A stretch of DNA of 64,000 bases from an uncultured Verrucomicrobiae bacterium. GTDB taxonomy: Bacteria > Verrucomicrobiota > Verrucomicrobiia > Opitutales > JABDGR01. This document shows, piece by piece, positions 6,132 through 61,010 of the stretch (the first letter of the stretch is position 1; every line of letters starts with the position of its first letter). The stretch spans positions 530,590 to 594,589 of the forward strand of contig CAVXVB010000009.1 in NCBI GenBank assembly GCA_963765205.1. Direction: 5' to 3'. The notes beneath the pieces were generated by a model. That model was not told the origin of the DNA and searched no databases. It was given only the letters and a program-made list of their open reading frames with translations. Made by a program: the position numbers and the translations under genes.

Positions 6132-8366
6132 TTAGAAGAGCAACTCATTTTGCCGCGGCTGGGCGCGGCTGGCGGGGGCGAGGAACGCGGCATAGCGTTC
6201 GACCCAATCATCCAATTTTTCGAGGTAATAGCCCGGATCGTAGGGGGCCTGGACGGGGTCGTAACTTTCAATCGGGCGCGCGCGCTGCCAGTCGGGCGCG
6301 TTATTTTTTGCGCCGGTGGTGATGTAATAGGTGACCGATTCGCCCTGGCGCGGGAGCGGATTCATTTTCAAGGCGACTTCGAGCGCGGCGCGGCGGGGTT
6401 TGCTGCTTTCGATTTCGATCGCATGGCGGTAGGCTTCAGGGCTGAGGCTGAGGAATTCCGTTTTCGCGAGCCGACGCACGTCCACCGAGCGATCGCGCAG
6501 CCCGGCGCGCAATTTCTCCAGCAATTCCTCGGGAGCCGGGCCGCTGGCGAGGAGGAGGTGGCGCAGGAGGGCCTCGGTCAATTCGCGCAGGAACGGCTCG
6601 ACCCCGCGCGAGCGCAGCGCGGAGCCGCGGGTGGTGACTTCGCCGCCGTCGAGCAGCGCATAGTTTTTCGCCTTGTAGCAAAACATGGCCTTGAATTTCC
6701 CGTCGAATTCCAGATCAATCCCGGCGGGCAACACGCCGGCCACGCGCGCGAGCAGTTCTTCGGGCTGGTCGTAAAATTCGGGCGCGTGCAGGTAGAGGCC
6801 GTCGGTGTCGGCTTCGAGCACCTTGGCTCCATGCCGCTCAAATTCCACGATCAGCGCCTGGAGCAATTCGCGCCCGCGGGCGGTGACTTCCGCCGCGAGT
6901 TCGCTGTCGCCAAAGCGCGCGCCTTCGAAGCCGAGGTAGCCGTAGAAAGAATTGATGATGATTTTGAAACCGGCCTGGCGCGCCTGGTATTCGCGGCGCA
7001 ACTCGGCGGTCGCGGCGTCGCGCGCGAGGTTTTTATAGGCGAGGCGTTCCGCGCGCAATTCCCGCAGCAGCGGAATAAACGCCCCGAGCGAGTCGCCTGC
7101 GGGATTGCGGCCGATGAGTAGGAGCAGGCTGGGGTAGAGCGACGCAACGTCGAAGTGCAGCACTTTGCGGAACACGCCGGTGAGCAGGCCGCGCGTGTAA
7201 CCGCCTTCGAAGGGCCGGGTTGGCGGCGGCGTGGGCAGGGCGCGGCGGGCGTGGAAATATTTTTCTAGCAGTAGAATCTCCGCCTTGAAAGCCGAGCCGC
7301 GCAGGCAGGCGTCCTGTAATGTAATAGGAAATGTTTTGGCCTGCGCGACGTAGCCGGGGAGCAGCAAGTCGGCGAGGGCGCGCGTCTCACGCAAGTCGTC
7401 GCGCAAATAGGCGCGGAAGCGCTCGCGGTCTTTGGCAAAAGTTTCTTGAATCGCCGCGGGGGCGAGGTAGGTGCGGGCGTCGTCCGCCTTGGTCAGGCCG
7501 AGGTGTTGCGCGACGGCCTTGAGGCCATAGGAGGGCAGCTCGCGCGCGGCGAGGTCGTAAAGCTGCACCATCAAGTAGGTGTCGAACACGGCGCGGCCGG
7601 GCAAATCGCAGCGGGGAAAATCGAGGTGGCGTTCGGCCACGCGCAGGCGGCCCGGGCGAAACGCGGCTTCCTGCCCAAAGCGGCCCCACGCGCACGGCAC
7701 ATGGTGTCGTCGGCAGCGCACGCGGAGGTAATCCAGGTCGAACTTGAAAATATTGTGCCCCTCAATGACATCCGGGTCTTCTTCGGCCAGCACGCGATTG
7801 AGATCTTCGAGCAGCACGCGCTCGGCGTCGTGGGTCGGCGCGCTGATTTCCAGCAGGCGCGGGCCGCGGGCGGTGCCGAGGCCGATGGCGAGGACGCGGT
7901 CACCGGCGCGCTGCGCATTGGAAAAACCACCTGGCTCGCCGCACGCGGTTTCGATGTCGAGTTGTAGGCGGCGCAAGTGCGCAAAGGTCAGCCCGGCGAA
8001 CATCCGGGTGCCGCGCTGCAAAAGAAACTGGCTTTCGAGGGCGCGCAGGGTTTCCGAATCGGTATTGCGCGGGCGCTGCTCGAGCCAGGCGCGGTAGGCG
8101 GCCACGTCGGCGAAATGCGCGAGGTGGGTTAATTGGCCGTCGCCAGCCAGGCGCTCGACGTGTGCGGAGGCCGGGTCGGGGAGGGCGGATTCGTTCACCC
8201 AGGCAAATGGTTGAAAGGCTGATGAGGAGACCACGCGCGGGCCATCGCCCTCGGCTGTGGCTAGGCGGGCGACGCCATCCGCGCCGACCCATAAACCACA
8301 CAGCGGCGGCGGGCCGGATTCCCATTCGGCGCGCGGGTCGGGAAGCGGGGGCGTGGTTTGGCTCAT
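6132..8366 (-). CDS. polB: family B DNA polymerase (Pol II-like)
   Basis: 744 aa. Exonuclease motifs: LDIETA, GHNIFKFDLDYL, YLRDDLRET. Polymerase motifs: DVASLYPS (A), KIIINSFYGYLG (B), EADTDG (C). Confidence 0.9.
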   Translation of the reverse strand: MSQTTPPLPDPRAEWESGPPPLCGLWVGADGVARLATAEGDGPRVVSSSAFQPFAWVNESALPDPASAHVERLAGDGQLTHLAHFADVAAYRAWLEQRPRNTDSETLRALESQFLLQRGTRMFAGLTFAHLRRLQLDIETACGEPGGFSNAQRAGDRVLAIGLGTARGPRLLEISAPTHDAERVLLEDLNRVLAEEDPDVIEGHNIFKFDLDYLRVRCRRHHVPCAWGRFGQEAAFRPGRLRVAERHLDFPRCDLPGRAVFDTYLMVQLYDLAARELPSYGLKAVAQHLGLTKADDARTYLAPAAIQETFAKDRERFRAYLRDDLRETRALADLLLPGYVAQAKTFPITLQDACLRGSAFKAEILLLEKYFHARRALPTPPPTRPFEGGYTRGLLTGVFRKVLHFDVASLYPSLLLLIGRNPAGDSLGAFIPLLRELRAERLAYKNLARDAATAELRREYQARQAGFKIIINSFYGYLGFEGARFGDSELAAEVTARGRELLQALIVEFERHGAKVLEADTDGLYLHAPEFYDQPEELLARVAGVLPAGIDLEFDGKFKAMFCYKAKNYALLDGGEVTTRGSALRSRGVEPFLRELTEALLRHLLLASGPAPEELLEKLRAGLRDRSVDVRRLAKTEFLSLSPEAYRHAIEIESSKPRRAALEVALKMNPLPRQGESVTYYITTGAKNNAPDWQRARPIESYDPVQAPYDPGYYLEKLDDWVERYAAFLAPASRAQPRQNELLF

Positions 8367-8413: not shown

Positions 8414-8878
8414 TCATTTCAATCTACGCCATCCACTATTTTCGCCGCCGATTTGCAGGACGCCATACAGGACGCCGGGCAAGACCAGGGCCAAAACGCC
8501 CGACAGCGAACCGTTGGCGATTAGGGTCAACACCATCACCCCCACGCCGACCAAGGCCGACCCGTAGAACGCCCACTTTTTCCATCGGAACAAAAAGATG
8601 ACGCAGAACATGTCAATTGCAGCGAGCGCGGTGATTCCCCAAGTATACCACGCCGGATCGGGAGCGATCTTGATGACGGAACTCAACTGGGGCGCGCCAC
8701 CGATGGCGCTCATCCCGAGGTTGATGAGGATAGACAGGGCCTCAACGAACAGCATAAAAAGGAGCCAGGCCAGCAGGCAGCCGTGACGTTTTGGTGTTTT
8801 CGCTGGCGGGGGTGGCGACGGCGGCCCGGGGGGCGGCGGATGGAGAATCGGCGGGATGGAAGGGGAATTCATAGTCAC
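8414..8878 (-). CDS. membrane protein with proline-rich N-terminus, unknown function
   Basis: 154 aa. PPPPGPPSPPPP is followed by about four hydrophobic segments. Confidence 0.5.
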   Translation of the reverse strand: MTMNSPSIPPILHPPPPGPPSPPPPAKTPKRHGCLLAWLLFMLFVEALSILINLGMSAIGGAPQLSSVIKIAPDPAWYTWGITALAAIDMFCVIFLFRWKKWAFYGSALVGVGVMVLTLIANGSLSGVLALVLPGVLYGVLQIGGENSGWRRLK

Positions 8879-8911
8879 CCATCATAGACCCCGGCGGGCT
8901 GAAAACGACGC

Positions 8912-13327: not shown

Positions 13328-15220
13328 ATGAACATTGAGCAACTGATCACCTCCTATTGGTGGATGCCCGTGCTGGTGCTCATGCTGGTATTCCACAAGT
13401 TGATCCTGCGCGTCATCGGCGTGGTTATTGTGCCGCAGGACAGCATCGGCATCGTCAACAAGCGCTGGGTGCTCTTTGGCAAGAACCGCACGCTGCCCGA
13501 CGGCGCCATCATCGCCCTCAAGGGCGAGGCGGGACTCCAGGCCGACACGCTGGCGCCGGGCATCCACTTCTGGCTCTGGCCGTGGAAGTTTGAAATCACC
13601 CGCCAGAAGTTCATCAGCATTGACGAGGGCGAAATCGGCATTGTGGATTCGCGCGACGGCAAGCCGCTGTCGGGCGGGCGCGTGCTGGCCCGGCTTGTGC
13701 CGTGCGATTCGTTCCAAAACGCCCGCGCCTTCCTCACCAATGGCGGCGAACGCGGCCCGCAAGTGGGCATCATCCCGCCCGGCACCTACCGCATCAACAC
13801 GGGGCTTTTCACTATTACCGCCGAAAAGGTGCTCGAAATCCCCGACAACATGGTCGGCATCGTCACCACCAAGGAGGGCACGCCGCTGCGCACCGGCGAA
13901 ATCGCGGGCAAGGAAATCCCAGGCCACAATTCGTTCCAGGACGGCCAGACCTTTATTGACAACGGCGGCTTCAAGGGCCTGCAGGAGCAAGTCATGCTCG
14001 CGGGGCGCTACTTCCTCAACCCGCGCTTTGCCACGGTCGAAATTCGCAACATGACGGAGGTGCCCATCGCCTACGCCGGCGTGGTCATCGCCTATGTGGG
14101 CGAGCCGGGTGTGGATGTCACGGGCGATTCGTTCAAGCATGGCAATTTGGTGGACAAGGGCAAGAAAGGCGTATGGGTCGAGCCGTTGGACCCCGGCAAA
14201 TATCCGATTAATCCCTACACGCACAAAGTCGAAAACGTCCCCACCGCCAACGTCGTCCTTAATTGGGCCACCGGGAAATCGGAGGCGCACAAACTCGACG
14301 CCAACCTCTCGACCATCACGGTGCGCTCGTCGGACGGCTTTAAGTTCAATCTGGATGTGAGCCAGATCATCCACATTCCGCGCATTGACGCCCCGCGCGT
14401 CATCGCCCGGATGGGGAGCATGTTGAATCTTGTCACGCAGGTGCTCGAACCGACCATCGGCAACTATTTCCGCAACGCCGCCCAAGGCTCCGACGTCATT
14501 GACTTCCTCCGCATGCGCGCCGAGCGCCAGGCCGACGCCAAGAACCGCATCTCCGCCGCCCTCCAGGAATATAATGTCGGCGCGGTGGACACCCTCATCG
14601 GCGATATCACGCCGCCCGAGGAATTAATGAAGCCGTTGACCGACCGCAAAATCGCCGAGCAGGAAAAAGTCACCTACGAAACGCAACGCCTCGCGGAGCA
14701 AACCCGCAAGGAACTCCAGCAAGCCCGCGCGCTGGCCGACACCCAGGCGAAGGTTGTGGACGCCGAACGGCGCGTGCAAATCGCCGACTTCGACGCCCAG
14801 TCCACCGTCAAGCAATCGGAAGGCTCCGCGCGCTCGAAAATCATCAACGCCGAAGGCGACGCCAAGGCGAAGACGACCAACGCCGACGCCGACGCAAAAG
14901 TCCTGCAAATGGTCGGCGCGGCCGAAGCCAGCAAGACCAAGCTGGTCGGCACGGCGGAAGCGGATGTTATCAAGCTAAAGATCGAATCCATGCAGTCGGG
15001 CAACTACGCGGGCATCGAAATCGCAAAAGCCCTGGCCAGCAGCGGCCGGAAACTCGTGCCCGACATCGTCGCCACCAGCGGTGGTAACGGCGGCGGGCTG
15101 GCCGGCAACGGCTCCCTCGTCGAAGTCCTTCTCGCCAGCATTATCCGCGACCAGTTGCAAAAGAGGGCGGGGGAGGGGTCGGCACCCTCAAAGCCTGACG
15201 AGGATGCAGGGGATAAGTAG
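13328..15220 (+). CDS. SPFH/flotillin-family protein (YqiK-like)
   Basis: N-terminal TM, a band-7-like core, then a long A/E/K/Q-rich coiled-coil tail (AEQEKVTYETQRLAEQTRKELQQARALADTQAKV...). Confidence 0.85.
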   Translation: MNIEQLITSYWWMPVLVLMLVFHKLILRVIGVVIVPQDSIGIVNKRWVLFGKNRTLPDGAIIALKGEAGLQADTLAPGIHFWLWPWKFEITRQKFISIDEGEIGIVDSRDGKPLSGGRVLARLVPCDSFQNARAFLTNGGERGPQVGIIPPGTYRINTGLFTITAEKVLEIPDNMVGIVTTKEGTPLRTGEIAGKEIPGHNSFQDGQTFIDNGGFKGLQEQVMLAGRYFLNPRFATVEIRNMTEVPIAYAGVVIAYVGEPGVDVTGDSFKHGNLVDKGKKGVWVEPLDPGKYPINPYTHKVENVPTANVVLNWATGKSEAHKLDANLSTITVRSSDGFKFNLDVSQIIHIPRIDAPRVIARMGSMLNLVTQVLEPTIGNYFRNAAQGSDVIDFLRMRAERQADAKNRISAALQEYNVGAVDTLIGDITPPEELMKPLTDRKIAEQEKVTYETQRLAEQTRKELQQARALADTQAKVVDAERRVQIADFDAQSTVKQSEGSARSKIINAEGDAKAKTTNADADAKVLQMVGAAEASKTKLVGTAEADVIKLKIESMQSGNYAGIEIAKALASSGRKLVPDIVATSGGNGGGLAGNGSLVEVLLASIIRDQLQKRAGEGSAPSKPDEDAGDK

Positions 15221-16151: not shown

Positions 16152-16246
16152 CACCGCCAAGACGCGAAGGGCGCGAAGGAATTAATTCTGACAATTCTGT
16201 AATTCTGGCAAAAAACTTTCTTGGCGCGCTTCGCGCCTTTGCGGTG
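16152..16246. repeat. long imperfect hairpin, arms built of CGCGAAGG-type units
   Basis: Left arm 16152-16178 pairs with right arm 16220-16246 at 23 of 27 positions. The 41-nt loop holds AATTCTG x3. It lies between convergent gene ends. Confidence 0.8.
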
Positions 16247-16860: not shown

Positions 16861-18657
16861 TCACGCCGTCAGCCCGCTGCCGCTGATTTTGAAGCCATAG
16901 ACGTAGTTGCCGACTTTTTGGTCGGGGAGGGTAACATTCAAGCCTTTGGCATCGCGAGTGAAGACCAGCGGGGCGCCGACGCCGATGATTTCCACGCGCT
17001 CGACCTTGCCTGGCGCCGTCGGCGCGCCGTCGGCGAGGGATTTAATGACGAGCTTGCCGTCCGCCGGCCAGTCCATCACGAAGGCATAGAGCGTTTCACC
17101 TTTTTGCATAAAGCGGAAGTCCTGCGCCGTGTATGACGGCGGCGGGGTGTTGCCGCGGCGGCCGCCCACGCCGTTGCCGGCGGCGGGCGCACTGGAGCCT
17201 TCGCCAAAGACCCGCCAAGGGCGGGTGGCGTAAATGCCCTCGTTGTTCCGGTCCATCCAAGTGGTGAAGTCGGCGATGATGGCCAATTCGTCGGCGTCGG
17301 GCTGGCCATGGCCAGGCAGGGGGATGTTGAGCATGAGGTTGCCGTTCTTGCTCGCGTTGTCCACGAGCATGCGGGCGATGTCGCGCGCATTTTTGTAGTC
17401 GTGCTTGGTAAGGTGTTTGATGTCGTAATGCCAGGAACCAATACAAGTGTCCGTTTGCCAAGGCTCGGGGCGGATGGCATTGGCCCCACCGCGTTCAATG
17501 TCCATGACGAGGGCCTGGCTCTGTTGCAGATTCAGCCCTTTGCCCGTCAGCACGCAATCGAGGCGGCCTTTATTAAGCTTTAAATTGTGATTGTAGAAGT
17601 AGGCGGCGATGCGCAGGCCGATGTCCGACATGGGGTAATGGGGCAAGACCGTGTCGTCGAAATAGAGCAGATCCGGATTGTGCTTGTTGATGAGGTCAAT
17701 GATGCGATTAAAGAACTTTTCACTGAATTCTTTGGCCACTGGCGGGGTCGTTCCGCTGGCCGCGCCGCCTCTCCGGCCACCCTGCGGGCTGAGTTCCCAA
17801 TCGTAATTGCCGAGGGTGTGATACTGCGCGTAGTAATCCTGGGGGTCGAGACCTTCCCACCACAAACCCTTGCCGTCGGCCTTGGACATTTGGCCATCGT
17901 AGGGGACCCCTGCATAAGGGCCCATCGTGTCCCCCTTCTGGGAGTCCTCATACCAGCTCCAAGCCCGGTCGCCATGGCTGGAGATGGCGAATTTCAATCC
18001 CGCGGCACGCACGGCTTTTTCCCAGCCGCCCACCAGGCTCTTTTTCGGCCCGATGGCGATGGAGTTCCATGGCTGATAGGTGGAATCGAACATGTCGAAG
18101 TTGTCATGGTGGTGGGCCATGCACATGAAGTATTTGGCGCCGGCGCGTTTGTAGAGGCCGATGAGGTGTTCGGGGTCCCATTTTTCCGCCTTGAACAGCG
18201 GCAGGATGTCCTTGAACCCAAACTTGGAAGGGTGGCCATAGTGCTCGACGTGGAATTTATGGACCGGGTGGTTTTCCTGATAGATATACTGCGCATACCA
18301 GTCGCCCTGTTCGGGCACGCATTGCGGACCCCAATGCGCCCACATGCCGAATTTGGCGTCGCGAAACCAGTCGGGCGCGGATTTATAATTTTGGAGCGAA
18401 TCGAAATTCGGTTGAAAGGGCCCTTCCATCTCGCCAAAACCCGGGGGAGGCACAATCGGCGCCGGAGCGGGCGGCATGGGGCGTGGCACAACGGCCACGG
18501 GAGCGGCCGTGGCCGAGTCGGCGGCGGAGGCGGCAGCCGGAGCCGCGGTGGCGGCCGCATTGGCGGCGGAGAGTTTGGTCAAGAGGCGGGGAGCGGCCAG
18601 GCTGGCAGCGGCTGCGAGGGTGGTTTGCTGAATGAATTTGCGACGATGGAGGGACAT
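16861..18657 (-). CDS. alpha-L-fucosidase (GH29) with Tat-type signal
   Basis: MSLHRRKFIQQTTLAAAA (twin-arginine signal). WFRDAKFGMWAHWGP and YFMCMAHHHDNFDMFDS are GH29 hallmarks. ATG at 18657 chosen. Confidence 0.9.
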   Translation of the reverse strand: MSLHRRKFIQQTTLAAAASLAAPRLLTKLSAANAAATAAPAAASAADSATAAPVAVVPRPMPPAPAPIVPPPGFGEMEGPFQPNFDSLQNYKSAPDWFRDAKFGMWAHWGPQCVPEQGDWYAQYIYQENHPVHKFHVEHYGHPSKFGFKDILPLFKAEKWDPEHLIGLYKRAGAKYFMCMAHHHDNFDMFDSTYQPWNSIAIGPKKSLVGGWEKAVRAAGLKFAISSHGDRAWSWYEDSQKGDTMGPYAGVPYDGQMSKADGKGLWWEGLDPQDYYAQYHTLGNYDWELSPQGGRRGGAASGTTPPVAKEFSEKFFNRIIDLINKHNPDLLYFDDTVLPHYPMSDIGLRIAAYFYNHNLKLNKGRLDCVLTGKGLNLQQSQALVMDIERGGANAIRPEPWQTDTCIGSWHYDIKHLTKHDYKNARDIARMLVDNASKNGNLMLNIPLPGHGQPDADELAIIADFTTWMDRNNEGIYATRPWRVFGEGSSAPAAGNGVGGRRGNTPPPSYTAQDFRFMQKGETLYAFVMDWPADGKLVIKSLADGAPTAPGKVERVEIIGVGAPLVFTRDAKGLNVTLPDQKVGNYVYGFKISGSGLTA

Positions 18658-18689
18658 GGGGGTAGGGGTGGGGGGTGGGGGGATGGGGG
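18658..18689 (+). repeat. G-tract cluster (G5, G4, G6, G6, G5)
   Basis: GGGGGTAGGGGTGGGGGGTGGGGGGATGGGGG abuts the fucosidase start codon. On the mRNA strand it is C-rich. Confidence 0.8.
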
Positions 18690-18904
18690 AATAAACTGGG
18701 TTAAAAATGAGACGGAAGTTTGCAAGTTTCAAATGGAAAAACGAACCACGGTAGCCCGCGCGAAAGATGGCAGGCGTGGGACGCGATCGTGGCAGTATGA
18801 TGATCACAAGAAGAACGACAGGAAGTAATCCAAAAAAGGTTTGCCAATTGACCCCACCCGCAACCCTCACCAATCTCAAAGAACAAAATTTGCTCCGTTT
18901 GGAG

Positions 18905-22138: not shown

Positions 22139-22807
22139 TTGCCGGCCCAGCAGTTGGTTTGCCTGGGAAATCTTGCGAAAAACGCCGGTTGTTCAACCTT
22201 CTTGCCTTTGCCCCATATTCGCATACCGTTTTCTGAATCGGACCCAAACACCAACGAGGTGCTGGACATCTTTAAAAAGACGGGCGCGCTGCTCGAGGGG
22301 CACTTTGTCCTCCGCTCGGGGTTGCACAGCGGGCACTACTTTCAGTGTGCCCAAGTGTGCCAGAGCATGGAAGCCGTCACACGGTTATGCCAGATGCTGT
22401 TGGCGAAATTCGGGCGGGAGGACTTTGCCACGGTATTGGCGCCGGCGATGGGCGGACTCGTTCTCGGACAGGAAGTTGCCCGCCAGGCGAACAAGCGTTT
22501 TTTGTTTGCCGAGAAGGTGGACGACAAACTGGCATTGCGCCGTAATTTTAAATTTGCGCCGGGCGAGCGCGTGCTCGTGGTCGAGGATGTCATCACCCGT
22601 GGCGGGCGCGTGCAGGAATGTCTCGACTTGATCACCCAGGCCGGTGCCACGCCCGTCGGTGTGCTGGTGCTCGTGGATCGCAGCGAGGGGCAGGCCCGCT
22701 TTTCCATCCCGCACGTCTCGCTCCTCGAAATGAGTTTCCCCACCTATGCGCCCAACCAACTCCCGCCCGCGCTCGCCGCGCGGCCGGTGCAAAAACCGGG
22801 CAGTTGA
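22139..22807 (+). CDS. pyrE: orotate phosphoribosyltransferase
   Basis: GALLEGHFVLRSGLHSGHYFQ and the PRPP loop VLVVEDVITRGG. The start is uncertain: TTG at 22139, possibly a downstream GTG. Confidence 0.9.
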   Translation: MPAQQLVCLGNLAKNAGCSTFLPLPHIRIPFSESDPNTNEVLDIFKKTGALLEGHFVLRSGLHSGHYFQCAQVCQSMEAVTRLCQMLLAKFGREDFATVLAPAMGGLVLGQEVARQANKRFLFAEKVDDKLALRRNFKFAPGERVLVVEDVITRGGRVQECLDLITQAGATPVGVLVLVDRSEGQARFSIPHVSLLEMSFPTYAPNQLPPALAARPVQKPGS

Positions 22808-22810
22808 TCC

Positions 22811-23674
22811 ATGTTCAAACAAATCACCATTCTCGGCCCCGGTCTGCTGGGCGCTTCGCTGCTGCAGGCGGCGAAGGGCCGCGGCCTCTGCGAGCGCACG
22901 GCCGCCTGGTCGCGCCGCGCCGAAACCCGCGCCAAGTGCGAGGGCCAGCCGTGGTGCGACGCTGTTTTTGCCGACGCGGGCAAAGCAGTGGCCAAAGCGG
23001 ACTTTGTGGTTGTTTGCACGCCGGTGGATACCATCGTGCCGCTGCTGGGCGAAATTGCGTCCATGCTGAAGAAAGGCGCGCTGGTGACGGATGTCGGCTC
23101 GACTAAAAGCCTCATTTGCCGGCTGGGCCGCGCCGCGCTGCCGAAAAAAGTCGCGTTCGTCGGCTCGCACCCGATGGCTGGCTCGGAGAAAGGCGGCCTC
23201 GAACACGCTGACCCCGAGCTATTCCAAGGCCGCGCCTGTTTTGTCACCCCGCTGGTGGACACGCCAGCTAAGGACGTGGACCGCGTGACGCGTTTTTGGA
23301 AGGCGCTCGGTATGGAAGTCTCCACCACCACGCCGGAAACGCATGACGAAATCGCCGCGCACCTGAGCCATCTGCCACATTTGCTCGCCGCCGCTTTTTG
23401 TGCCTACCTCGGTACGCGCGACCCGCACTGGATCCATTTCGCCGGGCCGGGCCTGCGCGACACCACGCGCGTCGCCGCCGGCGACCCGGCGCTGTGGAAA
23501 GCCATCGCCCTCGAAAACCGCGAAGAGATTCTGCGCGCCCTCGATGGTTTTCAAAAGGAAGTGGACCACCTGCGCGCCGCCCTGCACAACGCGCAACCAT
23601 TTGCACTCCAGCACCTCCTCGAACGCGGCCGCGACTACCGCGTGCGCCTGCGGCCCCTCGGGGGGAAAGGATGA
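22811..23674 (+). CDS. tyrA: prephenate/arogenate dehydrogenase
   Basis: ITILGPGLLGASL (NAD-binding site) and VGSHPMAGSEKGG. The stop TGA at 23672-23674 lies inside the repeat arm. Confidence 0.9.
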   Translation: MFKQITILGPGLLGASLLQAAKGRGLCERTAAWSRRAETRAKCEGQPWCDAVFADAGKAVAKADFVVVCTPVDTIVPLLGEIASMLKKGALVTDVGSTKSLICRLGRAALPKKVAFVGSHPMAGSEKGGLEHADPELFQGRACFVTPLVDTPAKDVDRVTRFWKALGMEVSTTTPETHDEIAAHLSHLPHLLAAAFCAYLGTRDPHWIHFAGPGLRDTTRVAAGDPALWKAIALENREEILRALDGFQKEVDHLRAALHNAQPFALQHLLERGRDYRVRLRPLGGKG

Positions 23675-23856
23675 AGGATGAGGGATGAAGGATAATAAAG
23701 CCTGCGTTGGCCGCCGCGCCCAACGCACCGCCCGCATTATCATAGAACACAATCGCTGATGATTACGGGAACTTTTCATCCTTCATAATTCATCCTTCAT
23801 CCCTCATCCTTCATCCCTCATCCCTCATCCCTCATCCCTCATCCTTCATCCTTTCC
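23664..23856. repeat. perfect 25-bp inverted repeat plus heptamer tandem array (TCATCCY x11)
   Basis: GGAAAGGATGAAGGATGAGGGATGA (23664-23688) is the exact reverse complement of 23832-23856. The right arm extends as 11 heptads from 23776-23852. Confidence 0.95.
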
Positions 23857-25212
23857 GTGAAAGACCCCCTCTCCATTACCCCCTTCACCGCGCCCGTGCG
23901 CGGCGCGGTGGAGCTGCCCGGCTCGAAAAGCGTCACGAACCGCGCGCTCATTCTCGCCGCGTTGTGCCGCGACCCGGTGACGCTGCGTTACGCGCTGTTC
24001 AGCCGCGACACGGAAATTATGGTGAAGGCCCTTCGCGCGCTGGGCTTCAAAATCACCACCAGCGAAAAAACGCACCGCATCCGCGTCGAGGGCCGCGGTG
24101 GGATGATTCCCAAGGCGAAGGCCGCGATCCACGTCGGCAACGCCGGCACCGCCGCGCGCTTTTTGCCCGCGGCCTTGTGCCTGAAAAAACGCGGACACTA
24201 CATTTTTGATGGCGACGAAGCCATGCGCGAGCGTCCCATGAAGGGCCTGCTCGACGCCTTGCGGCGCCTCGGCGCGGACCTCGAATTCAAGGGACAGCCC
24301 GATCATTTTCCCTTTGTGCTGCACACGCACGGCATGTCCGGCGGAACAGTCGAGGTGGACGCCTCGGCCTCGTCGCAGATTCTGTCGGCGATGATGATTG
24401 CGGCTGCGTGGGCCAAGGGCCACCTTGAGTTGCACCGCCTCGGCCCGATGGTCTCGGAGCCGTTCATTCTGATGACGGCCAAGATGATTCCGCGTTTCAA
24501 CCGCGGCTTTGTACCCGACATTGACGCGCCGGGGTTCAATGAGTTTTACCATGTCGAGCCGGACGCGACGGCGGCCAGTTATTTCGTCATGCTTCCGCTG
24601 GCCGCGCCGGGCGCCGCGCCGGGCTACCAAATCACCGGCCTCGGCGAGAACACCACTCTGCAGGGCGACCTGGCCTTTCTTACCGTCGCGCAAGCGGTGG
24701 GCCTGCACATCGCCAAAAAAGCCTATCACACGGAAATCACCGCCGGCACCGGCGCGCGCGGCGTCACGCAAAATTTTAATCCGTTTTCCGACACGTTTTT
24801 AACTCTCGCCGCCATGGCGCCGTTGCTCGAAGGCCCGACGCGCATCACCGGCATCGCGCACACGCGCAAGCAGGAGACCGACCGCGTGCTGGCGATGGCG
24901 ACGGAGCTGAAAAAGCTCGGCCAGGAGGTCGAGGAATTCGAGGACGGCCTGGCAATTACGCCGAATCTGGAAAAACTGCGCGCGCTCGCGGCCCAAGGCG
25001 TGAAGAAGAGGAAATTACTCAGCATCGAGACCTACGACGACCATCGCGTCGCGATGAGCTTTGGGGTTCTCGGCTGCCGCGATTTGCTCGGCACCGGCAA
25101 ACCCTGGCTGGAAATCCAACACCCCGCCTGCTGTGGCAAAACCTTCCCCAAGTTTTTCGAGACCCTCGATGACTTGCGAAAACAATCCAAAAATTGTCCA
25201 CGCCGATTATAA
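23857..25212 (+). CDS. aroA: 3-phosphoshikimate 1-carboxyvinyltransferase (EPSP synthase)
   Basis: LPGSKSVTNRALILAAL, NAGTAARFL and RKQETDRV. The GTG start immediately follows the repeat. Confidence 0.95.
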   Translation: MKDPLSITPFTAPVRGAVELPGSKSVTNRALILAALCRDPVTLRYALFSRDTEIMVKALRALGFKITTSEKTHRIRVEGRGGMIPKAKAAIHVGNAGTAARFLPAALCLKKRGHYIFDGDEAMRERPMKGLLDALRRLGADLEFKGQPDHFPFVLHTHGMSGGTVEVDASASSQILSAMMIAAAWAKGHLELHRLGPMVSEPFILMTAKMIPRFNRGFVPDIDAPGFNEFYHVEPDATAASYFVMLPLAAPGAAPGYQITGLGENTTLQGDLAFLTVAQAVGLHIAKKAYHTEITAGTGARGVTQNFNPFSDTFLTLAAMAPLLEGPTRITGIAHTRKQETDRVLAMATELKKLGQEVEEFEDGLAITPNLEKLRALAAQGVKKRKLLSIETYDDHRVAMSFGVLGCRDLLGTGKPWLEIQHPACCGKTFPKFFETLDDLRKQSKNCPRRL

Positions 25213-26426: not shown

Positions 26427-26518
26427 GAAAACACGGAGGATACGGACAGAGTGAGCAGTTTGGGTTTCGAGTTTGGAGTTGAACTCCCGCTGGGTTCTCC
26501 TTGTGTTCTGTGGTTTAC
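26427..26518. repeat. degenerate member of the tandem-oligomer hairpin family
   Basis: The left arm has CACGGAGGA/TACGGACAG units. The right arm ends CTGTGGTTTAC. Only about 10 bp can pair (including G-U) and the register is ambiguous. It abuts ATG 26524. Confidence 0.5.
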
Positions 26519-32312: not shown

Positions 32313-32387
32313 GCTTCCGTAGTTCAATGGATAGAACACTGGCCTCCGAAGCCGGTGATCTGGGTTCAAGTCCCAGCGGGAGCACCA
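32313..32387 (+). tRNA. tRNA-Arg (anticodon CCG), CCA encoded
   Basis: A cloverleaf can be read: acceptor GCTTCCG/CGGGAGC, anticodon loop CTCCGAA, T-arm CTGGG-TTCAAGT-CCCAG, 3' ACCA. Confidence 0.9.
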
Positions 32388-39368: not shown

Positions 39369-39800
39369 ATGCCCCATCCCGCCGCCCCCAACCGCGCCGC
39401 CTACCGCGCGCTGGCCGCCTACCGCCACGCGCTGCGGCGCTTTTTGCATTTCAGCACGGAGGCGGCCCGCGCGGCGGGCGTGTCCCAGCAACAATACCAG
39501 GTGCTCCTCGCGGTCAAGGCCGCGCCCGGCCGCGCGTTGCTGACCATTGGCGAGCTGGCCGAAATCATGCACGTCCGCCATCACAGTGCCGTGGGCCTAG
39601 TGGACCGCCTCACCCGGCATGGCCGGCTCCGGCGCGTGCGCGACACCGCTGACCGCCGCCGCGTGCGGGTGCGGTTGACCGCGTCCGGTGAAAAAGCCCT
39701 CCGCCGCCTCGCCACCCAACATCGCGACGAACTGCGCCGCCTCGGCCCGCAACTGGTGCGCTCGCTTAAATCCCTCGGGGTGGAGGGAGGGAAGAATTAA
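39369..39800 (+). CDS. MarR-family transcriptional regulator
   Basis: Winged helix: QQYQVLLAVKAAPGRALLTIGELAEIMHVRHHSAVGLVDRL..DRRRVRVRLTASG. Divergent from the ClC gene. Confidence 0.85.
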   Translation: MPHPAAPNRAAYRALAAYRHALRRFLHFSTEAARAAGVSQQQYQVLLAVKAAPGRALLTIGELAEIMHVRHHSAVGLVDRLTRHGRLRRVRDTADRRRVRVRLTASGEKALRRLATQHRDELRRLGPQLVRSLKSLGVEGGKN

Positions 39801-39925
39801 GATTTATGAATTAAGAATTAAGAAGTTAGAAATCTCAGATCTCAAATTTCATATTTGCATTTACTTTCTGTCTATTCACCGGCTCTTCAACTAGAAACTT
39901 AAAAACCAGAAACTAAAAACGTTCA
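39795..39925. repeat. AT-rich spacer of short direct repeats
   Basis: GAATTAAGA x3 (39795-39826) and AGAAACT(T)AAAAAC x2 (39893-39921). Lies between the convergent marR and murA ends. Confidence 0.7.
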
Positions 39926-45939: not shown

Positions 45940-46357
45940 GCGGTTCCTTGGCGGAAAAGGGCATTCGCGGCGAAAAAGCAAGTGTTTCGTGCGCCGCGGC
46001 GGCGAATTTCAGCGCAGCTAATAACTCCGGGCGCGGGCTATTTCCGGCCTAAATCAGCGTGAATAAGCTTCCTAAATTCATTCCGTTCGCTATGTTCCTG
46101 CTCAGGCCTTCTGCTGTGACCGAGACCTCGCCAGTGTTCCTACTCTGATAATTATATAACAAAGGGAGCTCGCCACCCGGCGGTGGCTGCCACGCCGTAA
46201 ACCGGAAGGCAAAAGCCGCCAGGAGAGCACCCACCTAAGCACCAGAGGTTCAGAACACCTGCTTTTACGGCATAAGTGGAAGGTCATTTTTTTTTGGCGG
46301 GTTGATTGGGCGGGGTGAGGCGGCGCAGGCTGGGCTGTTGCCTTAAAGCCGCAAGAC

Positions 46358-46450
46358 AACCACGGATGACACGGATAGCACGGATGCGTTTCACCAGCAG
46401 AGCTGTGGCTTGGATATTGTCATCCGTGCCATCCGTGTCATCCGTGGTTT
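46358..46450. repeat. 29-bp-stem hairpin built of CACGGATRR units
   Basis: AACCACGGATGACACGGATAGCACGGATG (46358-46386) versus CATCCGTGCCATCCGTGTCATCCGTGGTTT (46421-46450). There is one mismatch, which becomes a G-U pair on the minus-strand transcript. Confidence 0.9.
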
Positions 46451-52220: not shown

Positions 52221-52354
52221 CAAAGAGGGCAAGGAAGATGGAAAATGGAAAATGGAAAAACCGGAATAGAGAAAGGGGTAGGAATGGGATATACCGCCGA
52301 GTAACTTCTTGCGATAAAAATTGCACCAGGGCGGATGACTCGCAAAATGCGGCC

Positions 52355-54296: not shown

Positions 54297-54501
54297 CTGT
54301 GGAGTTGGATAGGGGGAACAAGTAACCGAAGAAAAATGGCCGGATGCCGGACGGCAAGGGGCGCGAAACGAGGCACAATGACAAGCCGGTGAGGCTTTGC
54401 CAAGCGCAAATACGCAAGGGGTATTCGAGAGGGTGGGGCGGACCTCTTTGAACTAACACCCCCATCACTCGGGTGAATGCAGCAACCGCTTAATGTTCAA
54501 T

Positions 54502-54590
54502 GCTCAACGTTGAACGCTCAATAAAGCAGCCCCATGGGGTGACGGGACGAAAATCTTGGTCGCCTTCAACTTGAGCGTTGAGCGTTAAAC
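54502..54590. repeat. hairpin built of TTGAGCG/TTGAACG units
   Basis: 54502-54521 pairs with 54571-54590: 9 bp, one mismatch, then 6 bp including one G-U. More degenerate units lie on both sides (54487-54610). Confidence 0.75.
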
Positions 54591-54613
54591 GTTAAAAGTT
54601 GAGCGTTAGGAGA

Positions 54614-56125
54614 TTAGGCTGCCGGCGCTGGCGGCTTGTAGCCCCAGAGATGGCGGTTCTTGATGATGGCCGCGGCTTGCGCCGGCACCAGCTTCTCCCA
54701 AGCCGGGTCGCCGTCCGCGATTTTTTTAAGCACGTCGCGGGAGAAGATGCCGAGGTTTTCCGCATGAAAGCCCAGCAGGGGCTCGATGTAATGGTTTTCC
54801 AGCAGGTAGGCGTAGAGGTTGCGCAGGTGAATTTTGACCTGCAGGTTTTGCGCGGTGATCAGCCACTCGCCCGGCATGGGCAACGCTTGGGGCGCCGGCT
54901 CGGTGTGGGTGGCCCCGGCGACTTTGCCGGCCTGCTCGGCGAGGTAGCGGTTGTAGCCCGAACCCTTCATCGGGTAAACATACATCCGGGTGTTCTCCTT
55001 GAACAGGCGCCCGCATGCTTCCAGGATGCCTCCGGCCAAATTATCATAATATTGCTCGTTGAAAACTTCGAGGAGATTATTGATCCCCAGCGAGATGCCG
55101 ACCATCTTTTTCGTGAAGCGCCGGAAATAATCCGTCAACCGGAAAAATTCGGAGTAATTCGAGATGAGCACATGGTAGCCCAGCGCCGCCAGCGTGTCCA
55201 CCCGGGCCAGAAAATCGTCGAGGTTCAGCTCCCCGCCGGCCAAAAGGTTGTGGATGGTGATTTCGAGGAGAACGACGACCTCCTCGCCGCGGTTCTTTTC
55301 CTCCTGCAGGAATTGCGCGCCGGCCGCCTCCAGCATGTCAATGTTCACATGGGTCACGGGTCGAAATGAGCCGCGCTCGACCAGGATCGCCTTTTTGTAG
55401 AGGATTTCCGAGGGCTGCAGCACATGCCGGTCCGGCGAATACATCACCGCGTTCGTCAGCCCATGCTGCACGAGGTGCAGGCAGATGGCACGGTTTTCAA
55501 TGTGGGCGAAGTCCGGGCCGTTGAATTCAATCATGTCCACTTCGATGCGCTGGATACCGAGGCTGTCGGCCAGCGAGAGGATGAATTCCTCGATGTCGGT
55601 GTGCAGCAACGCCGCGCCGTAGACGAGGTTCACGCCGATGATGCCGAGGGCGTCCTGCTGGGCGACGGGCGTCTTGTCCCACATCCGCACATGGATGATG
55701 ATGTCGTTGGGCGGCCCATGGGGGCGCAATTGCAGACGCATGCCCATCCAGCCGTGGCAGTCGCCGGTGCCGCGGAAACTGGCGGCGGCGACGGTGTTGG
55801 CGTAAACGAAGAAGGTCGTGCGGTCGCCGCGCGCCTGGCCCAGCCGCTCCGTCAAGAGTTGGTATTCGTGGTCGAGCATCTGCACTAGGCGCTCGCGGGA
55901 GACGTAGCGGTGCGCCTTGCCATAAATGTCGTCGCTGAACTTCATGTCGTAGGCCGACATGCTTTTGGCGATGGTGCCGGCCGCGCCGCCGGCCTGGAAA
56001 AAGTGCCGCGCCACCTCCTGCCCCGCGCCGATTTCGGCAAACGTGCCATAAATCTCGTCGTCGAGATTGATGGCCAGGGCTTTTTGGTTGGTCGAAAGTT
56101 TATCGCGTTGGGAAGATTCAGACAT
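54614..56125 (-). CDS. conserved protein of unknown function
   Basis: 503 aa from ATG 56125. The N-terminal block is IYGTFAEIGAGQEVARHFFQAGGAAGTIAKSMSAYDMKFSDDIYG. I cannot assign a family. Confidence 0.55.
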   Translation of the reverse strand: MSESSQRDKLSTNQKALAINLDDEIYGTFAEIGAGQEVARHFFQAGGAAGTIAKSMSAYDMKFSDDIYGKAHRYVSRERLVQMLDHEYQLLTERLGQARGDRTTFFVYANTVAAASFRGTGDCHGWMGMRLQLRPHGPPNDIIIHVRMWDKTPVAQQDALGIIGVNLVYGAALLHTDIEEFILSLADSLGIQRIEVDMIEFNGPDFAHIENRAICLHLVQHGLTNAVMYSPDRHVLQPSEILYKKAILVERGSFRPVTHVNIDMLEAAGAQFLQEEKNRGEEVVVLLEITIHNLLAGGELNLDDFLARVDTLAALGYHVLISNYSEFFRLTDYFRRFTKKMVGISLGINNLLEVFNEQYYDNLAGGILEACGRLFKENTRMYVYPMKGSGYNRYLAEQAGKVAGATHTEPAPQALPMPGEWLITAQNLQVKIHLRNLYAYLLENHYIEPLLGFHAENLGIFSRDVLKKIADGDPAWEKLVPAQAAAIIKNRHLWGYKPPAPAA

Positions 56126-56387
56126 GGAGGGAGGGGGGGCAGAGCCGGGCACTATACAGCAAAAACAGTGCCCCAACAGCGTAAACCGCGAGGACCGGAG
56201 GAACTCAATTATATTCTTCGTCAAAATTCCGTTACTTTAGGCCGACGGCCGGTGTCTCCCATCATGTAACCTCCCACTCGTCCGCTGCCGGCCGCCGTGC
56301 ATCTCCCGTCTCCTGACTTCTAGCTTCTTCTCTCCCCCCGATATCCCCCTTGCAGTTTGAGCCCTTCCCACTACACTACCTTCCCTC

Positions 56388-60940: not shown

Positions 60941-61010
60941 CCACAAAAAACGCAAAAGACACAAAACGGGAACAGATTGGATTCCTTTGCGTCTCTTATG
61001 TTTTTTGTGG
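60941..61010. repeat. hairpin built of A-rich units (ACAAAA / ACGCAAAAG)
   Basis: CCACAAAAAAC (60941-60951) pairs perfectly with GTTTTTTGTGG (61000-61010), and the arms extend imperfectly inward. Followed by TGAATC. Confidence 0.8.

Follow-up and report, generated by a model that had tools for sequence, protein, structure and literature searches.

A hypervariable heptanucleotide-repeat hairpin at the tyrA-aroA junction of an uncultured Verrucomicrobiae bacterium

In the genome of an uncultured Verrucomicrobiae bacterium of the order Opitutales (assembly GCA_963765205.1, contig CAVXVB010000009.1), the genes tyrA and aroA are separated by two facing arrays of 7-nt repeats which include a perfect inverted repeat, its left arm holding the tyrA stop codon and its right arm ending at the aroA start codon. 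The question raised by this junction, which lies within the 64,000 nucleotides analysed here (the window; positions 530,590 to 594,589 of the forward strand), is whether such an arrangement is a conserved switch governing two aromatic-pathway genes or something of a different kind. Judged by comparison with other genomes, the element is an example of a widespread class of bacterial repeats and not a conserved regulatory switch or attenuator. The reading favoured here, to which we assign a probability of roughly one half, is that it is a lineage-specific, hypermutable heptanucleotide hairpin which arose in place and which tunes the coupling of tyrA and aroA. The features on which the argument draws are listed below in window coordinates.

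22811..23674, + strand: tyrA (prephenate dehydrogenase), an open reading frame (ORF) with Pfam PDH_N and PDH_C; TGA stop at 23672-23674
23664..23693, + strand: left (purine) arm, GGAAA followed by about four GGATGAR units (Tandem Repeats Finder, TRF; inverted-repeat search)
23694..23774, + strand: loop, 81 nt, unique, with a GC-rich inner hairpin (inverted-repeat search; blastn)
23775..23856, + strand: right (pyrimidine) arm, 11 YTCATCC units followed by TTTCC (TRF; composition)
23792..23816, + strand: inner pairing register for the left arm, perfect over 25 nt (inverted-repeat search; minimum free energy (MFE) structure; pair probabilities)
23827..23856, + strand: outer pairing register, 25 nt perfect and 30 nt at 97% (inverted-repeat search; pair probabilities)
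23857..25212, + strand: aroA (EPSP synthase), GTG start at 23857 (ORF; Pfam EPSP_synthase, 2e-85; N-terminus aligned with orthologues)
22139..22807, + strand: pyrE-like phosphoribosyltransferase gene, 3 nt upstream of tyrA (ORF; Pfam Pribosyltran)

A preliminary description of this locus had reported a perfect 25-nt inverted repeat running from the tyrA stop to the aroA start, and all of its coordinates match the sequence. The left arm, GGAAAGGATGAAGGATGAGGGATGA, occupies positions 23664-23688 and encloses the tyrA TGA, as described, and its exact reverse complement at 23832-23856 lies flush against the aroA GTG, whose position is common to the orthologues (M-x-D-P-x-P-I in the N-terminal alignment). 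The pair extends to 30 nt at 97% (23664-23693 / 23827-23856, 133 nt apart), and the inverted-repeat search revealed a second perfect 25-nt register, in which 23669-23693 matches 23792-23816. The unequal size of the arrays, given earlier as about four units on the left and 11 on the right, is borne out by TRF, which at period 7 finds 3.9 copies at 23667-23693 and 11.3 copies at 23775-23853; the hairpin said to lie within the spacer is likewise present at 23703-23727 (23703-23714 / 23716-23727, 12 nt, 92%). Each arm holds at least three head-to-tail 7-nt units, as in a heptanucleotide simple sequence repeat (SSR), and the arrays have the non-coding location of that class, between tyrA and aroA. 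The outer left arm is formed by the last 11 nt of tyrA, GGAAAGGATGA (codons K-G-stop), of which the outer right arm, TCATCCTTTCC, is the complement; the remaining arrays are intergenic, within a spacer of 182 nt.

The repeat is confined to this junction. All 11 matches to the motif GGATGARGGATGARGGATGA (up to 2 mismatches) in the 64 kb lie here, and 100 shuffles gave none. The left arm contains no C and carries TGA and ATG in all three frames; a chain of mini-ORFs (MKDEG*) that runs through it was regarded as incidental to a unit that descends from an ATGA junction. The right arm has no start codon in any frame, and the tract at 23770-23856 comprises 87 nt without a single G, at 46% C, which makes it the longest G-free run of the window (the next is 34 nt). 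Upstream, the pyrE-like gene is likely the first gene of the tyrA transcription unit, and the order pyrE-like/tyrA/aroA is also found in the relatives L176-L178 and L183.

The junction is predicted to fold with an MFE of -84.4 kcal/mol on the + strand (z = -6.75; z = -6.3 on the - strand), and the predicted pair probabilities divide the Boltzmann ensemble between the two registers, with about 0.47 in the outer and about 0.5 in the inner. In the outer register, aroA positions -30 to -1 are predicted to be covered, which brings the tyrA stop and the aroA start together at the stem base, whereas in the inner register the 40 nt before the GTG are predicted to be left unpaired. The geometry of structure-mediated coupling, with the stop codon in the 5' arm and the initiation region in the 3' arm, is therefore predicted for one register and not for the other, and the earlier proposal that folding joins the tyrA stop to the aroA start stands as a prediction that about half of the ensemble shares. 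Transcription termination, which had also been proposed, could not be upheld: no + strand terminator-like site was found in 23300-24100, the loop spans 98-143 nt, and the tail reads UUUCCGUG, so that the features of an intrinsic terminator are lacking. The sole terminator-like site in the junction scan is on the minus strand, inside aroA. A sigma-70 promoter scan of the junction found no promoter, and a search against Rfam returned nothing above the gathering score, with only chance matches to eukaryotic families under an E-value threshold. The aroA leaders of Opitutales are mostly without Shine-Dalgarno-like motifs.

How the junction came to have this form was approached by comparing it with the junctions of relatives chosen by aroA, which also place the organism in the Opitutales; the closest relative found is L176, at 93% aroA identity. 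These junctions range from overlapping genes to long spacers, and in relatives at 80-87% aroA identity the two genes overlap or are separated by 8-21 nt. A 4-nt overlap of tyrA and aroA is found in L177 and L183 (GTGA in both) and in P0006 (from gene coordinates only), and L182 has an ATGA overlap. Short spacers of 8 nt occur in L179 and L180, and one of 21 nt in L178. Expanded spacers measure 115 nt in L006, about 120 nt in L005, 141 nt in L003 and 200 nt in L001. The spacer of L181 is at least 193 nt long, its contig beginning within the array. In L176 the 132-nt spacer holds a hairpin of a different heptamer, with the inverted repeat TTTCTGATTGCTGA / TCAGCAATCAGAAA. In more distant Opitutia the two genes are again neighbours, separated by roughly 10-80 nt that contain no arrays. 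On a neighbour-joining tree of aroA the expanded junctions are interleaved with those of the overlap type, and the junction appears to gain and lose hairpins quickly.

The repeat unit varies together with the length. GGATGAR is the junction unit in the window, L001, L181 and L006, TTGCTGA/GCTGATT that in L176 and L005, and L003 carries TTTATCA, TTTAGCC and TCGAATT units; in L004 a different gene lies upstream of aroA, yet TTTAGCG units stand immediately before the aroA start. Slippage-type expansion, as suggested in the preliminary description, is supported by the finding that unit number, sequence and type differ at the same junction among relatives, and the comparison of heptad number among related genomes that it had called for reveals variation of both copy number and unit at one locus among the window, L176, L001, L181, L006, L003 and L005. 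An exact look-up of the window TyrA protein, made for strain variants, found no record elsewhere. Elsewhere in L001, at 8173-8320, a purine arm (AGCTAGG/AGTTAGA units with an AGCGGGG expansion) faces a pyrimidine arm of GCTTCTA type, 44 nt upstream of the pyrE-like gene; the corresponding place in the window has no array.

The expanded arrays can be traced to the junctions from which they may have grown. The unexpanded junction of L182, ...AAGGGATGAAAGAC, consists of the stop/start overlap and includes the GGATGAR unit, that of L180, aaGCTGATTtcttcc, includes the unit of L005 and L176, and in L005 the right arm reads as the end of tyrA, AACGCTGATTT, in reverse complement. With the old stop/start junction thus present in the units (GGA-TGA-A; GC-TGA-TT), growth in place is the probable origin of the arrays, and the sequence pattern points to slippage with inverted copying as the probable means. 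In the ancestor, the tyrA stop would have overlapped the aroA start, or the two would have been about 8 nt apart. Slippage during replication would then have multiplied the 7-nt stretch holding the stop codon (GGA-TGA-A), an inverted templated copy that included the tyrA coding bases GGAAAGG would have supplied the opposite arm, and this right arm would subsequently have expanded independently to 11 units. The complementarity of the arms would have been kept over time by selection or by template-switch repair. The loops are non-homologous between lineages by blastn, and the 81-nt loop at 23694-23774 has no homologue by blastn in the window, in the fetched loci or in the loops of the related junctions.

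Joint change of the two arms is best seen at a second junction, between rbfA and nrnA in Pyrinomonadaceae, where a stem of 28-33 bp occupies the same place in three relatives (90-96% NrnA identity). The hairpins lie at 4237-4318 in L105, at about 1116-1190 in L184 and L185 and at about 1110-1189 in L186, and are built from different units: (GGATGAG)5/(CTCATCC)4; the series TGGTGAA, TGACGAA, CGACGAA, TGATGAA with its complement; and (TGACGAG)4/(CTCGTCA)4. RNAalifold applied to three sequences gives 37 pairs, of which 14 are changed on both sides (compensatory), with only 3 broken cells. After the stem comes UUUU, with the ATG about 11 nt further on. Since both arms have changed unit jointly, the arms evolve together, and such joint evolution can come from selection on the stem or from template-switch correction of quasipalindromes. 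Quasipalindrome template-switch mutagenesis, which perfects imperfect inverted repeats, is known from reporter assays on short quasipalindromes; we know of no demonstration for repeat arrays. It would explain perfect arms with variant units in mirrored order as well as joint arm changes.

That such hairpins are widespread is indicated by a scan of metagenomes with three GGATGAR units as the query, which returned at least 120 stretches on contigs of 40-69% GC. The counts that follow refer to the matches listed. Among 90 purine arrays of at least three units, a YTCATCC array lies within 300 nt downstream in 42 and upstream in 1, so that the purine arm comes first in 42 of 43 hairpins. The loops, which are mutually unrelated, measure 5 to 253 nt (median 28.5), half of them below 30 nt. 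Loops this short would be too small for a promoter, and such hairpins must then be transcribed whole and could not be efficient terminators. Gene contexts were taken from a crude, home-made ORF caller, so that the orientation counts are approximate: on the sense strand GGATGAR follows a stop codon in 36 cases versus 11, YTCATCC precedes a start in 31 versus 13, and the hairpins lie between co-directional genes in 20 cases, convergent genes in 4 and divergent genes in 4. Often one of the first three TGAs of the array serves as the stop of the gene. The stop-to-start geometry recurs in a set of 22 co-directional hairpins, in which the upstream stop begins between -18 and +24 nt from the start of the arm, and in 15 of the 22 the first possible downstream start falls 0-23 nt past the other arm.

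Period 7 accounts for 202 of about 265 arrays on the metagenome contigs listed, and 96 of those have units other than GGATGAR (357 kb). The two contigs examined by protein similarity are both Acidobacteriota (Pyrinomonadaceae), which puts the GGATGAR unit in two phyla. Ten arrays lie within 100 nt of a contig end; arrays of this kind tend to break assemblies, and copy numbers from metagenomes therefore need care. One 2.3-kb contig (L056, 66% GC) carries three hairpins with GGGATGA arms, at 176-245, 520-646 and 2107-2225, two of which have the inner stem GAACCCTCGGGA...TCCCGAGGGTT in common; this set looks like a REP-like dispersed family.

What might the element do? Translational coupling operates at ATGA and GTGA overlaps, and through long-range stems that are opened by an upstream ribosome, as between the coat and replicase genes of MS2. 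The tyrA-aroA junction resembles such systems in the 4-nt overlap of the relatives and, in the window, in having the stop within the 5' arm and the start after the 3' arm. Conserved synteny, together with the 4-nt overlap of the ancestral state, suggests co-transcription of tyrA and aroA and a former coupling of their translation. On a pyrE-tyrA-aroA transcript, the four-unit left arm would pair with either of the two perfect right-arm registers. The stem of the outer register would hide the 30 nt before the aroA GTG, with the tyrA UGA and the GTG at its base. Judging from ribosome footprint sizes, a ribosome that terminates at the UGA, which is 8 nt into the arm, would open this stem and free the GTG, and aroA translation would thereby stay coupled to that of tyrA as it had been through the ATGA/GTGA overlap. 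The inner register would expose a leader without G, start codon or Shine-Dalgarno sequence. Changes in unit number would shift the balance between the registers, and the element would then act as a dispensable tuning knob and not as an essential switch. Unlike the MS2-type stem, that of tyrA-aroA competes with an equally good register which spares the start, and its coupling is a prediction. On this model, coupling or occlusion by the stem is plausible, and a tunable intercistronic stem that modulates tyrA-aroA translational coupling is likely.

Several observations weigh against this reading. Hairpin potential is weak in three of the expanded relatives, L006 (z = -1.5), L005 (z = -0.7) and L003 (z = -0.6). 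Co-transcription of tyrA and aroA in the window genome is read from synteny, and the 81-nt loop could harbour a promoter, although the sigma-70 scan was negative. Slippage does not account for the origin of that loop. Among the metagenome hairpins, coupling cannot be the role of those between convergent (4) or divergent (4) genes, and the orientation counts inherit the crudeness of the ORF caller. Finally, when the MFE of the sense strand was compared with that of the antisense strand for the 20 co-directional hairpins, the sense strand was the better in 13, which is not significant; this 13 versus 7 result did not separate stem selection from template switching.

A bolder form of the coupling reading would extend it across phyla, to a class of self-renewing intercistronic hairpins born from stop/start overlaps. 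These would carry stops in all frames of the 5' arm and no starts in the 3' arm, with arms remaining complementary while the unit drifts, and would pass terminating ribosomes across the base of the stem to the next start, unit number tuning the stoichiometry of the operon. We regard so general a claim as improbable; if true, the excess of 7-nt repeats in bacteria, long unexplained, would acquire a function.

Among other explanations, operon palindromes of known effect deserve consideration. The REP/BIME elements of enterobacteria and the Correia/NEMIS elements of Neisseria are co-transcribed and can stabilise the upstream mRNA or be cut by RNase III; they form dispersed, conserved families that are transposase-linked or have terminal repeats with target duplications. 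The tyrA-aroA hairpin, unlike these, consists of local tandem repeats; it occurs once in the 64 kb, and its interior is not conserved. It might nonetheless be a selected intercistronic RNA device of comparable action, setting the levels of tyrA relative to aroA as a partial terminator, a stabiliser of the pyrE-tyrA 3' end or an RNase III site. The predicted stem, perfect over 25 bp and 25-30 bp in all, is long enough for an exonuclease block and for RNase III, which needs at least about 20 bp of near-perfect duplex. Furthermore, the architecture recurs at stop codons, and the rbfA-nrnA stem of Acidobacteriota, which is followed by a U-run, has retained its position and pairing through compensatory unit changes. 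Close relatives with overlapping tyrA and aroA, however, have no such element, which is thus not needed for the operon. The absence of a + strand terminator-like site, with the tail already given, speaks against termination in the window, and short-loop hairpins stand 0-23 nt before the next start, where efficient termination would silence the next gene. No sense-strand stability bias was detected. We consider a selected device unlikely. Somewhat greater doubt attaches to the view that the hairpin is a neutral by-product of slippage-prone DNA, its arms kept complementary solely by template-switch repair and without measurable effect on expression. Rapid turnover and loss among relatives, the many unrelated units in the same genomes (the 96 non-GGATGAR arrays of period 7), the occurrence of hairpins in every gene orientation and the outcome of the strand test all agree with neutrality. 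Yet so strong a stem, ending at a start codon, should by the predicted ensemble influence initiation in roughly half of the molecules, and the strict arm order (42:1 among the matches listed) together with the tight abutment to stops and starts indicates, at the least, purifying filters linked to translation.

Three further explanations appear much less probable. Loading of Rho at a rut site in the right tract, with polarity on aroA whenever pairing or ribosomes leave it uncovered, is very unlikely. A rut site calls for about 70-80 nt of C-rich, G-poor, unstructured RNA; the 87-nt tract has no G and 46% C, and in either register about 25 nt of it are predicted to be paired and at least 40-50 nt unpaired. 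Its composition, however, follows automatically from the repeat unit, and the units of relatives (TTCAAAA, TTTATCA, TTTAGCG) are not C-rich. A miniature mobile element of MITE or REP type, bounded by heptamers as its terminal inverted repeats and inserted at TGAA, would fit the TGAA on both sides (23672-23675 and 23858-23861), the same arms in two phyla and the three copies on contig L056, two with a common inner stem. Against this, the inverted repeat runs 8 nt past the TGAA into tyrA coding sequence (GGAAAGG), so that the outer right end copies the target and is not the end of an element; the loops, 5 to 253 nt long, are unrelated between lineages and loci, the 64 kb hold no other copy, and the units correspond to the ancestral junction at this place. 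The inverted repeats are thus not flush with a target duplication. For the run into tyrA and the unrelated interiors, the MITE reading was rejected and retains only the slightest credibility. The arrays could also be protein-binding sites, with ribbon-helix-helix heptad operators, CsrA GGA motifs or heptamer-spaced cold-shock/S1 sites as candidates. The omega repressor of pSM19035, a ribbon-helix-helix protein, binds heptad operators WATCACW beside its own genes; here GGATGAR units lie among housekeeping genes, and an omega-type operator was rejected. The unit AAGGAUGA, which we take to resemble the CsrA consensus, counts in favour of protein binding, as does the regular 7-nt spacing. Cold-shock and S1 proteins on heptamer repeats are discussed by MacGregor 2015 (PMC4679880). 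The same genomes, however, contain dozens of unrelated units, the predicted structure puts the GGA motifs in a stem and not in loops, and no cognate protein gene was identified. At one junction the unit has been replaced with its position unchanged, and because unit sequence is so freely replaced, the CsrA, omega-type and cold-shock readings were set aside as scarcely believable.

Heptamer repeat arrays are already known in other phyla, and the tyrA-aroA element must be seen against them. A 2007 survey, as cited in PMC4679880 and PMC4692102, found heptamers to be the commonest long SSR class of prokaryotes and proposed slippage. Rehm et al. 2015 described G-rich heptamer arrays, GGGAATC in Xanthomonas and GGGGA(C/T)T in Nostoc (PMC4692102), which resemble the present element as non-coding tandem 7-nt units whose length and sequence vary between close relatives at the same gene pair. 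Some of those arrays are inverted pairs able to form stem-loops, with no function established, and their polarity is alike, with the purine- or G-rich sequence on the coding strand downstream of ORFs and its complement upstream of them (PMC4692102). They differ in that GGATGAR has no G-quadruplex potential, its hosts are Verrucomicrobiota and also Acidobacteriota, its unit is traceable to a local stop/start junction, and half of its arrays, among the matches listed, form hairpin pairs of fixed arm order.

Similarly, MacGregor 2015 described direct-repeat arrays of TAACTGA in marine Beggiatoaceae, some cyanobacteria and Bacteroidetes (PMC4679880). These, too, are intergenic heptamers, mostly in one orientation directly upstream of starts, and in the largest class 1 nt separates the array from the start codon; some arrays reach back into the end of the preceding ORF, and the unit has stops in all frames (PMC4679880). 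However, TAACTGA arrays are almost all direct (1/170 inverted) with one dominant unit genome-wide (PMC4679880), whereas the GGATGAR class is inverted and has many units. The cyanobacterial STRR (short tandemly repeated repetitive) heptamers of Calothrix and Nostoc are mentioned in PMC4692102, and deletion of heptamer repeats upstream of recF/recO in Nostoc changed reporter behaviour modestly (bioRxiv 10.1101/2022.06.06.494920). Both are dispersed tandem heptamers near promoters and start codons, as here, and both differ in unit and phylum, with no stop-to-start hairpin described. In the collection of papers searched for the repeat strings, none contained GGATGAA/TCATCC arrays. What the element adds to the known heptamer arrays is the probable in-place origin from a stop/start overlap, the strict order of the arms and their concerted change.

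In annotation, the element should be labelled a hypervariable repeat hairpin and not a conserved attenuator of aromatic amino-acid genes. More generally, no long simple repeat of bacteria has been commoner than the heptamer array from the 2007 survey onward, and such arrays, in the papers through which that survey is cited here, have no established function. The tyrA-aroA junction offers a natural series (overlap, 8 nt, 21 nt and 115-200 nt, in three unit families) which, together with the rbfA-nrnA case, can be used to ask whether such arrays are by-products of replication or tuners of operon coupling.

The abundance of heptamers is a property of the surrounding DNA as well. In a TRF census, period 7 is the commonest tandem-repeat period of the 64 kb (8 of 21 arrays) and of its near relatives. 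Per 100 kb there are 12.5 such arrays in the window and 14.0 across the six Opitutales loci nearest to it, compared with 3.2 for other Opitutia and 2.0 for the outgroup loci. Of the other short-period arrays in intergenic parts of the window, two are strongly folding inverted pairs. One hairpin, at 46358-46448, has nonamer arms, (CACGGATGA)x3 / (TCATCCGTG)x3, that have the GGATGA core in common with the tyrA-aroA arrays and form a predicted 28-bp stem (-58.2 kcal/mol, z = -7.8). It lies 72 nt downstream of the 6S RNA gene found by Rfam (46105-46286), has the tail UUUAAUGG, and may mark the 3' end of the 6S transcript. A heptamer-arm inverted pair of CGCTCAA-type / TTGAGCG-type units at 54487-54607 (z = -4.2 on the + strand, -3.2 on the -) is located between two minus-strand ORFs, its right arm 7 nt from the stop end of the ORF at 54614-56224. 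Two unrelated AT-rich heptamer arrays (AAGAATT; AACTAAA-like) occupy one convergent-gene spacer at 39792-39824 and 39889-39920, where no hairpin is predicted (z = +1.8 and -0.9).

The other window arrays are (GGAAAAT)x3.9 at 52233-52259, whose minus-strand reading, ATTTTCC, lies just before the start region of an ORF on that strand; (AGTTTGG)x3.6 at 26457-26480; an array of period 8-9 at 16183-16207; a G-rich (GGGGTGG) array with G-quadruplex potential at 18657-18690; and (CACAAAAAA)x2.8 at 60942-60966. A tRNA gene was found at 32313-32384 (Rfam, 68.8 bits). Another Opitutales chromosome, OZ219851.1, has its own dominant heptamer families: in the locus examined (L021), arrays lie at 554-819, 2006-2114, 6753-6829, 8869-8899 and 14727-14799, with a composite array, (AATTAGG)n + (AAGGCTG)n, at two places within 21 kb, (AATTAGG)n at two more, and perfect (TGCTGGG)x10.9 and (GAACCCA)x7.1 arrays.

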